Positions 10,441 through 12,762 of a stretch of 17,858 nt of DNA are shown piece by piece. Origin of the DNA: a virus. Its lineage: Duplodnaviria; Heunggongvirae; Uroviricota; Caudoviricetes. The notes under the pieces were generated by a model. It was not told the origin of the DNA, ran no database searches, and saw only the letters and a list, made by a program, of their open reading frames with translations. Where the stretch lies: the IMG/VR virus record IMGVR_UViG_2778261693_000003. One strand, given 5' to 3'. A program made the translations under genes and the position numbers. Numbering within the stretch: the first letter of the stretch is position 1; each line of letters starts with the position of its first letter.

Positions 10441-10731
10441 TTAGTGATTGAGGCCGTTACCGCGTCCGTCGAGAAAAACTTCCACGAGCAAATCACGGGT
10501 ATAAGTGCGCTCGATGCCGCGATGCAGATAAAGCCGTCCGCGTAAATTAGCTGATGCAGTCCAGGTACCATCTTTGTGTTTGACCAGCATGCCTGGCATG
10601 ACCGCACCGCGATTAACGGTCTGCGTTCCGTAATGTTGATGAACCATAAAAACTCCTGCCCGTAAGCTGGGCTGCTGAACATATAGAGACTTCTGCGCGT
10701 ATTCAGGCGGTGGATGGCCGCCGGTTGTCAT
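10441..10731 (-). CDS. Hypothetical protein at the lambda kil position (96 aa; alternative start at 10647 gives 68 aa)
   Basis: First ORF downstream of pL on the leftward strand, ending 76 nt before gam. ATG at 10731 has GAGG 10 nt upstream; ATG at 10647 has AGGAG 5 nt upstream. Sequence is unrelated to lambda Kil as I remember it. Confidence 0.5.
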
Positions 10732-10868
10732 AACTAAGCCGCCTCGTTGAAGCGACTGAGGTATAAAGTGTTGTGTTGATTTCAGCTGGTCACACCGACG
10801 TTCACGCGTCCGTTTCACCCCTCGCACTCCCCGAAGCCTGCTGAAATTCAAACTGCGGATCTAAGCGG

Positions 10869-10920
10869 TCATCGCAACGGTGAAACAGGTGGTTATCGTA
10901 TCGTTGTGTCGTTGCGATGA
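10869..10920 (-). promoter_or_regulatory. Perfect 11-bp inverted repeat (TCATCGCAACG / CGTTGCGATGA) with a 30-nt loop, in the pL leader
   Basis: Read directly from the sequence. Lies just downstream of the putative pL -10 on the leftward transcript; no U-tract follows, so it is not an intrinsic terminator. Confidence 0.5.
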
Positions 10921-10924
10921 ATTT

Positions 10925-10990
10925 ATTTAAAACTATAGTTGTTTTATCGTCAACAACAAAAGTTGTTTTATCGGTTGTTTTTAATATAAC
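10925..10990 (-). promoter_or_regulatory. Putative OL/pL: leftward promoter with an array of GTTGTT/AACAAC operator half-sites
   Basis: Minus strand reads TTGACG, 17 nt, TTAAAT, embedded in repeated AAAACAAC/GTTGTT motifs. A near-identical promoter-operator segment occurs at OR (12469-12504). Confidence 0.55.
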
Positions 10991-11090
10991 TGGTTGTATT
11001 TAGGATGGATTTATTTTGTGACTTGCATCGCATAGCGATAACTGAAGTGAGGTGTGGTGGTTTTTTGGACGGTATGAGTTATGAGGGGGA

Positions 11091-11119
11091 GGAAAAGAAA
11101 ACCCGGCGCGGTTGCCGGG
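11091..11119 (-). terminator. Rho-independent terminator downstream of the lipoprotein gene (minus strand)
   Basis: Minus strand: stem CCCGGC / loop AACCGC / stem GCCGGG followed by TTTTCTTTTCC, 9 nt after the stop codon. Confidence 0.7.
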
Positions 11120-11127
11120 TATGATTA

Positions 11128-11508
11128 TCAGTCAGCCCAACCTGATTTCGAGTTTATTTGGGTTTCTGACATTGTGTATTTCTTAATCGTGTCATCGTTA
11201 AAAAGAATAGTAAGTTCTTTTTTCGTACCGTTCGTTCCATTATGGAATAATCCATAGAATGGAATAAAAGTGGTGCCATTCACTTTTACTTTTGCAAAGG
11301 CGTACTTCCAGATCTCGTTTCCACTGTCAGTATATGAAACAGCATCAGGAGAACCAAAGTAAGATTTAACCTCATTCTTGGTTGTTTTACCTTCCTGAAG
11401 TTTAGACTGGACACTAATTTCAGTTTCATTTTTGAGTTGCTGGTTGTCTGAAGAAGCACACCCAGCCAATACAGATGCCATCATGGCAGCGATTAGGATT
11501 TTTCTCAT
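11128..11508 (-). CDS. Lipoprotein (lipobox LAGC), 126 aa, at the rexAB/sieB position of the immunity region
   Basis: Signal peptide MRKILIAAMMASVLAGC with a lipobox cysteine. AT-rich gene with a TATAAT hexamer about 15 nt upstream of the ATG and its own terminator. Mature part loosely resembles small BamE/SmpA-OmlA-like lipoproteins. Confidence 0.8.
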   Translation of the reverse strand: MRKILIAAMMASVLAGCASSDNQQLKNETEISVQSKLQEGKTTKNEVKSYFGSPDAVSYTDSGNEIWKYAFAKVKVNGTTFIPFYGLFHNGTNGTKKELTILFNDDTIKKYTMSETQINSKSGWAD

Positions 11509-11737
11509 TTTATGTTTCTATTCATTATAATCAGAAACATCTTAACATAATGATTCGAAATAAAAACCGCTACGAGATAGGGGGACATTTTGCTGACAGT
11601 AGCAACAAATCTCAGCTAACAACGAGAATATTTACTGAAATATGCAAACAGATTTGGCGTTCTTATAGAGAATTTAGTGCAATATCTAATCCGAGTGGTA
11701 TAAACCTTAACCTTCGCTCCCTTAAGTCGTAGATAAA

Positions 11738-12427
11738 TTAACCATGCTTCCTGTACGTCTGCGGCATGCTTCCAATGACCTTACCGAATATGAACACCCG
11801 GTTCATCTCGTCTTTCTCGATCGGGTCCCACGGCGAGTAGCTCTTGTTATCAGAGATAACCAGCAGCTTATCCTTCATCATTTGAAGACGTTTTACATGG
11901 GCAGTGTCGTCGTACAGAAACGCATAGATGCCATCACCGTCGAAAGATTTAACAGTGATATCAACGAACAGCAGGTCACCTGGTTCGATCGTCCCTGACA
12001 TGCTGTCACCTCGCACGTTAATGATGCGGATATTTTCCGCCTTCCTGCCATCGAACATGTGACGAGCATCGTCAAACGAGTACTCAACCGAGCGTAGAAC
12101 TTCTACAAACTCACGGTTGATTACACCTGGCCCGGCACTGACTTCTATATCAAGAACGTCAATTTTGAAGTATTTGGAATGGCTGACAGTTGATTGTATT
12201 GGTTGCACTGTACTGTCTGACATATTTCCAACGCCAGAAGATAACCATTCTGCGCGTACACCCAAAGCGTTCGCGATCTCCACGATTTTAGTTGTTTGGT
12301 TAGCTTTCCCTGTTTCGATTTTCTGAATAGCAGCCTGGCTAACCCCGACCAAATCCCCAAGCGCCTTTTGTGTAAGGCCTCGCGCTAATCTGGCTTCTTT
12401 AAGTCTTTCTGAGAGTGTTGTTTTCAT
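11738..12427 (-). CDS. cI: cI-type prophage repressor (N-terminal HTH, C-terminal S24 LexA-like peptidase), 229 aa
   Basis: HTH segment LTQKALGDLVGVSQAAIQKIETG, C-terminal autocleavage-domain motifs (VRGDSMSGTIEPGDLLFVD, catalytic Lys in HVKRL). Divergent from cro across an operator region. Confidence 0.88.
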   Translation of the reverse strand: MKTTLSERLKEARLARGLTQKALGDLVGVSQAAIQKIETGKANQTTKIVEIANALGVRAEWLSSGVGNMSDSTVQPIQSTVSHSKYFKIDVLDIEVSAGPGVINREFVEVLRSVEYSFDDARHMFDGRKAENIRIINVRGDSMSGTIEPGDLLFVDITVKSFDGDGIYAFLYDDTAHVKRLQMMKDKLLVISDNKSYSPWDPIEKDEMNRVFIFGKVIGSMPQTYRKHG

Positions 12428-12531
12428 AGATCAAATGTACAACCAAGGTTTTATTTCATCAAACGAAAATGGTTGTTGACTAAAAACAACCATAGTTTTA
12501 ATCTTGATTCGGATTAACCGCGGAGGTTGTT
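12428..12531. promoter_or_regulatory. Putative OR with divergent promoters PRM (leftward, cI) and PR (rightward, cro)
   Basis: 25-bp palindrome ATGGTTGTTGACTAAAAACAACCAT at 12469-12493 overlaps a TTGACT -35 hexamer for PR. On the minus strand, TTGATG, 17 nt, TACATT sits 6 nt from the cI ATG, which has no SD sequence. Confidence 0.55.
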
Positions 12532-12762
12532 ATGAACCCAGCAATCAAAACAGCGATCAATATCGTTGGTTCACAAAAGAAACTAGGCGATGCCTGCGAA
12601 GTTTCACAGCAGGCCGTCTATAAGTGGCTTCACAACAAAGCAAAGGTATCCCCTGAACATGTCGGCAGCATTGTTACGGCTACTGGTGGAGTTGTGAAGG
12701 CATACCAGATTCGCCCGGATCTTCCGAAGTTGTTTCCACACACCGAAAAGAACGCAGCTTAA
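12532..12762 (+). CDS. cro: Cro-like HTH regulator, 76 aa
   Basis: GGAGG 6 nt upstream of the ATG. Small HTH protein (GSQKKLGDACEVSQQAVYKWL) divergent from cI. Confidence 0.75.
   Translation: MNPAIKTAINIVGSQKKLGDACEVSQQAVYKWLHNKAKVSPEHVGSIVTATGGVVKAYQIRPDLPKLFPHTEKNAA

Follow-up and report, generated by a model that had tools for sequence, protein, structure and literature searches.

A prophage-borne lipoprotein with a predicted BamE-type fold as a candidate phage-exclusion or envelope-modifying factor

Introduction

The moron gp15 of phage HK97 reportedly encodes an inner-membrane protein that brings about superinfection exclusion, as Cumby et al. are said to have described in 2012. Two genomic slots are classic places for exclusion and defence genes. 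The slot between the chaperone and the tape measure genes holds HK97 gp15 (PMC3594210) and the slot between cI and N is occupied by rexAB or bstA (PMC8585504), while the mEp phage lipoproteins Lpp021 and Lpp010 were shown experimentally to exclude phages, including lambda (PMC11893012). Few outer-membrane lipoproteins of prophages have a known role (Bor, Cor, Llp, TraT-like), and a small field has grown from each. Here we describe a lipoprotein gene of 126 amino acids (aa) on the minus strand at positions 11128-11508 of a 17,858-nucleotide (nt) stretch of Caudoviricetes DNA (IMG/VR record IMGVR_UViG_2778261693_000003), referred to below as the window. An initial annotation of this DNA had proposed a moron at the rexAB position that is expressed in the lysogen. 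We find that the gene is very probably an expressed moron lipoprotein and that it is a good, though unproven, candidate for a phage-exclusion or envelope-modifying factor.

The locus resembles each of the described systems in part. Like HK97 gp15, it encodes a small envelope protein of a family that phages recruited from their hosts, and it may share with gp15 the layout of a promoter-gene-terminator cassette; gp15 differs in being a YebO-like inner-membrane protein without homology to the protein described here, which is predicted to be an outer-membrane lipoprotein and whose window copy lies in the immunity region. With rexAB and BTP1 bstA it shares the slot and strand directly downstream of cI, some of its relatives are co-operonic with cI (47-48 nt past the stop codon) and bstA is co-resident with it in phage S107, but those genes encode cytoplasmic or inner-membrane abortive-infection systems with no homology, on a PADLOC search, to this secreted lipoprotein. 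T5 Llp, phi80/N15 Cor, mEp021 Lpp021 and mEp010 Lpp010 are likewise phage lipobox lipoproteins predicted to reside in the outer membrane, yet they are ~60-80 aa long and encoded beside the receptor-binding gene, whereas the present gene is unlinked to the type of J. BamE (SmpA/OmlA; PF04355), a lipoprotein subunit of the beta-barrel assembly machinery (BAM), is also an outer-membrane lipoprotein of ~110-130 aa, with profile homology at 92.6% probability; it is a single-copy core chromosomal gene, in contrast to an accessory, prophage-borne gene found in 69 of 5426 E. coli genomes. Finally, the periplasmic or secreted binder and inhibitor proteins BLIP/BLP and BtiO have the same fold but come from other organisms and bind other partners, BLIP being a tandem domain duplication; no effector gene adjoins the lipoprotein locus.

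Results

A lipoprotein cassette inserted between cI and the immunity-region terminator

The features of the cassette, in window positions, are the following.

11128-11508, minus strand: lipoprotein coding sequence, 126 aa, stop codon TGA at 11130-11128; member of phrog_3135 and of the BamE-domain superfamily.
11458-11508, minus strand: signal peptide with lipobox L-A-G-C; Cys17 codon at 11460-11458, Ala at +2 and Ser at +3.
11224-11268, minus strand: family-specific conserved loop FIPFYGLFHNGTNGT, residues 81-95, which BamE lacks; inserted between the final two long strands.
11539-11547, minus strand: extended -10-like promoter candidate TGTTAAGAT (TGnTAAGAT), ending 30 nt before the ATG.
11524-11529, minus strand: TATAAT hexamer inside the self-complementary ATTATAAT, 15 nt before the ATG.
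11558-11568, minus strand: T-run remnant GGTTTTTATTT; the 5' half of the hairpin of the relatives' pre-cassette terminator is missing here.
11548-11737: AT-rich orphan spacer of 190 nt within the inserted cassette, from the cI stop codon to the promoter motif.
11091-11120, minus strand: intrinsic terminator ACCCGGCAACCGCGCCGGGT with its T-run, 8 nt past the stop codon; also present in cassette-less phages.

Comparing the region with related phages, we found that PhiR26_1 is 99.5% identical to the window over 10850-12500 and that the open reading frame (ORF) is annotated there as a putative lipoprotein. PhiR34_1 and Turner carry the same cI, OL and terminator, and in both of them ~128 bp of unrelated sequence replaces window 11121-11737. 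Precisely this segment is thus missing from phages that are alike in cI, OL and terminator, which shows it to be a true insertion: 11121-11737 is a self-contained moron cassette that starts after the cI stop codon and ends at the terminator of the immunity region. The interval singled out by the initial annotation, 11091-11737, has nearly the same limits as the indel found against PhiR34_1, and its proposal of independent acquisition is borne out by the presence or absence of the gene between otherwise identical immunity regions. Morons are recognised, after Juhala et al. 2000 and Cumby et al. 2012, by such presence or absence at the same site among close genomes, by a deviating base composition, by a promoter and a terminator of their own and by expression from the repressed prophage. 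A deviating composition was found as well, in agreement with the AT-richness noted earlier: GC content is 0.36-0.38 against 0.47-0.53 in the flanks (ORF 0.381, cassette 11121-11737 0.361; cI 0.468; kil/gam/bet/exo/O/P 0.49-0.54), and GC at third codon positions is 0.36 in the ORF against 0.51-0.59 in its neighbours.

To follow the cassette in E. coli we counted it over 5426 complete genomes. It is present in 69 of them (1.3%), each copy at least 99% identical, while the empty junction occurs in at least 758 and the cI type in at least 1520. In the carrier genomes the cassette always lies inside a prophage, either at the argU/DLP12 site or in similar prophages; in strain Combat11I9 the carrier prophage occupies the argU/DLP12 site (fimZ, tRNA-Arg, intD ... 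emrE, ybcK). The 190-nt spacer sequence recurred in PhiR26_1 alone among 50,697 phage records. An 85-aa plus-strand ORF at 11475-11732 was rejected as a gene, having no PHROG match and lying in this orphan spacer.

The gene encodes a predicted outer-membrane lipoprotein

The ORF list and its translation give an ATG-initiated minus-strand ORF of 126 codons, and the lipoprotein ORF reported initially was confirmed, with a signal peptide and the lipobox LAGC. The N-terminus of the protein, MRKILIAAMMASVLAGC, has the positively charged n-region, hydrophobic h-region and lipobox of a bacterial lipoprotein (MRK-ILIAAMMASV-LAGC against [LVI][ASTVI][GAS]C), the acylated-site Cys being residue 17, followed by Ala-Ser-Ser; the Pfam LPAM_1 model matched it weakly. 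In an alignment of 101 distant relatives C17 is invariant and G16 nearly invariant. Under the Asp+2 rule of the Lol pathway, lipoproteins without Asp at +2 are sorted to the outer membrane. No Asp stands at +2 in the window copy, and the consensus is C-A-S-S/G-G-N. Because the +2 residue is Ala, the protein is predicted to be anchored in the inner leaflet of the outer membrane, facing the periplasm. A role as o-spanin (Rz1) was ruled out, as the product is a globular protein of 126 aa and the phage carries Rz elsewhere.

The mature protein is predicted to adopt a BamE/BLIP/OsmE-type fold

Profile searches assigned the protein to phrog_3135, a family of unknown function (E=5e-48), and matched it to positions 10-68 of the 71 of Pfam BamE PF04355 with 21.8 bits against a gathering cut-off of 23.2 (E=1.6e-4). 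PF04355 also matched 82 of 101 diverse relatives at E<=0.01, the best at E=4e-9, and hhalign aligned the family profile with E. coli BamE, whose reference sequence was confirmed against PDB, over 88 columns at 92.6% probability (E=4.6e-7). An AlphaFold (AF2) model built on the 101-sequence diverse alignment reached a mean pLDDT (predicted local distance difference test score) of 85.6 and replaced an earlier run on a shallow alignment (24 sequences, 68-84% identity; pLDDT 65.8), which was discarded. The model has two helices packed on a three-stranded antiparallel sheet, as in BamE, and Foldseek ranked BamE at the top. Matches in BFVD were phage 'SmpA/OmlA' lipoproteins of Pseudomonas phages PP9W2 and B3. 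All fold matches are superfamily-level only (11-24% identity), and those with a characterised function are in every case non-enzymatic envelope binders, the function of OsmE being unknown; the envelope binding protein BtiO has the same fold (PMC12541434). The mature part (~109 aa) is thus modelled as a BamE/BLIP/OsmE-type alpha-alpha-beta-sheet fold with a family-specific conserved FIPxxG loop, and the profile search and structure prediction agree on the BamE/SmpA-OmlA resemblance suggested earlier.

The loop FIPFYGLFHNGTNGT is invariant in close relatives; in distant ones P83 is nearly invariant and F81 and I82 are the majority residues. It has no hhalign counterpart in BamE, and the local pLDDT is lower (55-72). 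The 14-residue insertion (FIPFYGLFHNGT...), which BamE lacks, is the most conserved motif of the family. Conversely, the N-terminal segment of BamE (RPDINQGN) faces a 7-residue gap in the query in hhalign, and the Pfam match omits profile positions 1-9. In BAM structures this segment, which precedes helix 1, contacts BamD/BamA. We therefore rejected the protein as a BamE orthologue, on the grounds of the sub-threshold Pfam score, the missing N-terminal segment, the 14-residue insertion and its status as an accessory prophage gene. The RefSeq/PGAP name of WP_001226568.1, 'outer membrane protein assembly factor BamE', is probably misleading. Searched against the sequences of PDB chains, the family profile matched by its signal peptide only, and every NCBIfam match was confined to the signal peptide or the N-terminus and fell far short of its cut-off.

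Relatives recur in two slots and are under purifying selection

Relatives at 70-88% identity come from Citrobacter, Enterobacter, Salmonella, Cronobacter, Kluyvera, Leclercia and Serratia and are restricted to the temperate phages of Enterobacterales. We surveyed 90 loci, comprising the window, phage S107, eight genome contigs and 80 IMG/VR contigs, and the 126-codon gene was intact in all of them. Relative to the window copy, the proportions of nonsynonymous and synonymous differences were pN 0.10-0.13 and pS 0.72-0.94, the latter saturated, with dN/dS ~0.05-0.06 where computable; judged from this pattern, the ORF is a real gene under strong purifying selection.

A repressor of the helix-turn-helix (HTH)/S24 type lies upstream on the same strand in 63 of the 90 loci, which differ among themselves in repressor, replication and recombination modules. 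The gene begins 47-48 nt past the stop codon of a window-type cI, with no intervening terminator, in 16 of these 63, and by this arrangement the lipoprotein is the predicted second gene of the cI operon there. A further 24 loci carry the gene in the tail module, flanked by the genes for the major tail protein and for the tape measure, and the remaining three carry it in other contexts, neither immunity nor tail slot. In Salmonella phage S107 the slot holds the abortive-infection gene bstA and then the lipoprotein gene. The earlier remark that lambdoid phages carry defence genes in this position is borne out by S107, where lipoprotein and bstA share the cI-pL slot. More distant relatives (30-46% identical; Klebsiella phage RAH1, Pseudomonas phages, Alteromonas phage P24) lie in morphogenesis modules, before the tape measure. 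The wider family comprises 1206 clusters (50% identity) at E<=1e-3 and includes chromosomal members, and we conclude that phages recruited a host lipoprotein family.

Two other ORFs were seen in the cI-pL slot. A convergent ORF of 68-75 aa (phrog_3975) lies between the lipoprotein gene and pL in Citrobacter, Enterobacter and Salmonella prophages (8410-8722 in loci L004-L011; 4423-4650 in L003) and is absent from the window. In Citrobacter prophages (L005-L007, 7003-7911) a 302-aa phrog_4506 protein is encoded between cI and the lipoprotein and is another uncharacterised occupant of the cI-N hotspot.

A conserved promoter candidate and a shared terminator flank the gene

The sequence TG.TA[AG][AG]AT ends 30-35 nt before the ATG in 65 of the 90 loci, and its conserved form TGTTA(A/G)GAT combines TGn with TAAGAT or TAGGAT, as in promoters of the extended -10 type. 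The motif is common to the immunity-slot and tail-slot versions, though the surrounding sequences otherwise differ; the 25 loci without it are mostly the cI-fused ones. Among loci in the same register, positions -45 to -1 are 69-78% identical to the window against 37-48% at third codon positions, and since this stretch is better kept than the third codon positions, the promoter-like element appears constrained. Conservation thus points to the extended -10 TGTTAAGAT, not TATAAT, as the promoter candidate, with a predicted transcription start near 11532. The TATAAT that the initial annotation noted is indeed there, 15 nt before the ATG on the gene strand, but is not the conserved element: most relatives read TGCAAT at this position, and as a -10 it would give a leader of ~8 nt. 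The hexamer probably lies within the 5' untranslated region, although it may possibly serve as an E. coli-specific second promoter. The octamer ATTATAAT is self-complementary, so that a consensus scan listed the plus-strand site only. A regulatory hairpin TTTCC...GGAAA over the Shine-Dalgarno sequence was also considered and dropped, as the predicted start falls in its 5' arm and relatives do not keep the pairing consistently.

In most relatives a GC hairpin and T-run, often CCCGGCCACCGCGCCGGG-TTTTTATTT, precede the promoter motif, whereas the window retains only the T-run half; folding at 11558-11568 gave no convincing terminator hairpin. Because the upstream hairpin is missing, read-through from cI/pRM into the lipoprotein gene is plausible in this phage. 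Downstream, the terminator has a 7-bp stem (6 GC) at 11120->11101 and a T-run to 11091 on the minus strand. A hairpin and T-run follow the stop codon in nearly all loci, and the terminator of the window, CCCGGCAACCGCGCCGGG-TTTT, belongs to the same sequence family as the upstream terminators of relatives. This family, CCCGGC(C/A)ACCGCGCCGGG with a T-run, is found both ahead of and behind the lipoprotein cassettes of various phages (upstream in loci L052, L057, L083, L094, L050 and L077; window copy 11091-11120). The hairpin and T-run that the initial annotation assigned to the gene as its own thus exist at 11091-11120, but the same terminator stands at the same place in phages without the gene. 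Given that the terminator family recurs and that the terminator is equally present in cassette-less relatives, it seems better described as a shared bracket or immunity-operon terminator than as the private terminator of the gene, and the family may act as a homology or recombination handle for the swapping of morons in the slot.

Neighbouring genes and the host prophage

The neighbours of the cassette in the window are as follows.

11738-12427, minus strand: cI-type repressor, HTH_3 + Peptidase_S24; upstream neighbour of the lipoprotein gene.
12532-12762, plus strand: cro-like gene, divergent from cI; beyond it cII-like, O, P and ren genes.
10925-10990, minus strand: OL operators and pL (TTGACG-N17-TTAAAT), assigned by comparison with OR/pR at 12465-12500.
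572-6859: sfm fimbrial genes and fimZ, tRNA-Arg (5604-5677) and intD (5696-6859); left flank of the prophage.
16039-17565: ybcK-type recombinase; right-hand end of the prophage.

The repressor (229 aa) lies directly upstream of the lipoprotein ORF on the same strand, and OL/pL lies downstream, confirming the rexAB position, between cI and OL/pL, that had been proposed. OL/pL and OR have in common AACAAC/GTTGTT half-sites and the layout TTGAC(G/T)-N17 (TTGACG at pL, TTGACT at OR), and the candidate pL is directed leftward, towards kil, gam, bet and exo. Neither an N-like nor a cIII-like gene was found between pL and kil (10441-10818), in region 10819-10953. The pL leader begins with an 11-bp stem (~10870-10920), its overall fold being no better than that of shuffled sequences (z -0.39), and an Rfam scan of 10600-11800 found no RNA family.

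The window as a whole represents an intact lambda-like prophage in the DLP12 (argU) site, related to the defective DLP12 of K-12. A fimZ-like response regulator at 4729-5424 (minus strand) gave weak PADLOC matches to CARF3-type models (E ~1e-6) through its C-terminal HTH, almost certainly a generic similarity of DNA-binding domains. The carrier phage PhiR26_1 (PV340555.1) also bears PD-lambda-1, an OmpD-like porin, Bor, Lom, an omptin and a YbcY-like gene, and is thus unusually rich in envelope and defence morons.

Discussion

Taken together, these data lead us to favour, tentatively and at a probability somewhat short of even, phage exclusion at the envelope level as the selected function of the lipoprotein, by analogy with other occupants of its slots. 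Exclusion is favoured because members of the close subfamily are restricted to temperate phages, where they recur in two classic exclusion and defence slots. In this reading the protein would be processed by Sec/Lsp and anchored in the outer membrane facing the periplasm. Its transcription in the lysogen would start from its own extended -10 promoter TGTTAAGAT, as the conserved sequence and position suggest, probably with additional read-through from cI in this phage. Since its characterised structural relatives (BamE, BLIP, BtiO) are non-enzymatic binders, the lipoprotein is expected to act by binding, and the very high conservation across genera argues for a conserved host target; the known uses of the fold and the two slots would likewise fit non-enzymatic binding to a conserved envelope component. 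Binding could block an early envelope step of the incoming phage, either receptor use or the delivery of DNA across the periplasm by the tail tip and tape measure. The lipoprotein would thereby serve as a superinfection-exclusion or lysogenic-conversion factor that is not tuned to the receptor-binding protein of its own prophage.

Several observations weigh against this reading. PADLOC-DB 2.0 gave no defence family at E<=0.01, and no homology to characterised exclusion lipoproteins emerged from Pfam and PHROG scans or from hhalign against Lpp021. Moron slots are not function-specific, and the same type of prophage bears the virulence and fitness morons Bor, Lom, OmpD-like porin and omptin. Family members at 36-39% identity occur in ordinary chromosomal contexts, so that the fold family has roles outside phages. 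On the side of expression, a transcriptome of a carrier lysogen was searched for and none was found, and the promoter candidate is assigned from conservation, a consensus scan of the gene strand having turned up no -35/-10 pair ahead of the ORF. The presumed Shine-Dalgarno triplet (11519-11521, minus strand; 11-13 nt before the ATG) reads AGA in the window, where most relatives, and at least 19 E. coli copies that are nearly the same in all else, read GGA; the window copy may thus be translated less well.

The alternative that survives best, though unlikely on balance, is a host-fitness or virulence conversion factor that changes the envelope (serum, bile or osmotic tolerance) in the manner of lambda Bor or chromosomal OsmE. 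The wealth of envelope morons in the carrier prophage (Bor, Lom, OmpD-like porin, omptin) would fit, as would the ordinary chromosomal lipoproteins among the distant relatives, and strong conservation across genera suits a conserved host target under this explanation too. Yet none of the 90 loci placed a member of the close subfamily anywhere but in temperate-phage modules, the two slots in which it recurs are known above all for exclusion and defence genes, and Pfam and PHROG scans show no homology to Bor.

Quite doubtful is a BamE surrogate or modulator that would dock on BamA/BamD, either replacing BamE or next to it, and would alter the assembly of outer-membrane proteins, RcsF handling or receptor display and possibly aid the prophage's own outer-membrane proteins. 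The remote yet significant homology and fold match to BamE, the product name given by PGAP and the several beta-barrel proteins encoded by one carrier phage, PhiR26_1, speak for it, but the PF04355 score stays under the gathering threshold, RPDINQGN has no counterpart (the Pfam match starting at profile position 10) and the conserved 14-residue insertion is not in BamE. As a variant of exclusion, we consider it improbable, but worth naming, that the lipoprotein is a phage-made BamE mimic that docks on BAM or another conserved outer-membrane machine in lysogens, re-programming the displayed beta-barrel receptors or barring incoming tape-measure proteins from crossing the periplasm.

The initial annotation had pointed to Llp and Cor as models of receptor masking, which on our data is an analogy only, with no homology and no linkage to the receptor-binding end of J. 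Masking of the receptor of the prophage's own J, which would block re-adsorption and spare progeny from inactivation on debris, has precedents in T5 Llp, phi80/N15 Cor and mEp Lpp021/Lpp010 (PMC11893012 for the last two), and it would agree with the predicted outer-membrane topology and with the late co-expression expected for tail-module copies. We consider it improbable because the gene is unlinked to the receptor-binding domain of J: the last 250 aa of PhiR26_1 J are at least 95% identical in 43 phage records, while the gene is in just one of these, PhiR26_1, and 80%-identical copies occur in phages with unrelated tail modules. Moreover, the ~60-80-aa Cor/Llp-type genes sit beside the receptor-binding gene, whereas this 126-aa gene lies elsewhere, and sequence homology to those lipoproteins is absent. 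Pfam and PHROG scans found no Cor, Llp, Bor or TraT family for it, and hhalign aligned it with Lpp021 over 15 signal-peptide residues only (29% probability). The mEp exclusion lipoproteins were accordingly rejected as relatives, being unrelated 72-aa proteins encoded beside J, Lpp021 right after it. Least probable of all is a periplasmic inhibitor or immunity protein that, as a BLIP/BtiO-like binder, would act against a colicin, a type VI secretion effector or a tail-associated peptidoglycan hydrolase of a phage, since the likeness of fold that suggests it is superfamily-level only (11-24% identity) and no cognate toxin gene adjoined in the contexts read.

Our literature search (BamE/OmlA-type prophage lipoproteins, PhiR26_1, ECOR lambdoid hotspots) found no study of a phrog_3135-type family. 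An envelope-lipoprotein moron in a known hotspot is familiar; what is new is the BamE/BLIP scaffold, the distribution over two slots and the conserved promoter element. The lipoprotein has been captured repeatedly into two classic exclusion-moron slots in temperate siphophages of Escherichia, Salmonella, Citrobacter, Enterobacter, Klebsiella and Serratia, and this repeated capture, the strong purifying selection and its own conserved promoter-like element make it worth testing. Were phage exclusion confirmed, a single small gene would provide a defence at the envelope, which would bear on the host range of phages used in therapy against Enterobacterales; were the lipoprotein found to act on BAM or a different envelope machine, it would offer a natural tool for probing that machinery. 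If BamE mimicry proved true, it would define a new, fold-defined class of exclusion that works through the essential envelope-assembly machinery of the host and moves, in phages of Enterobacterales, between the moron slots of the immunity region and of the tail module.

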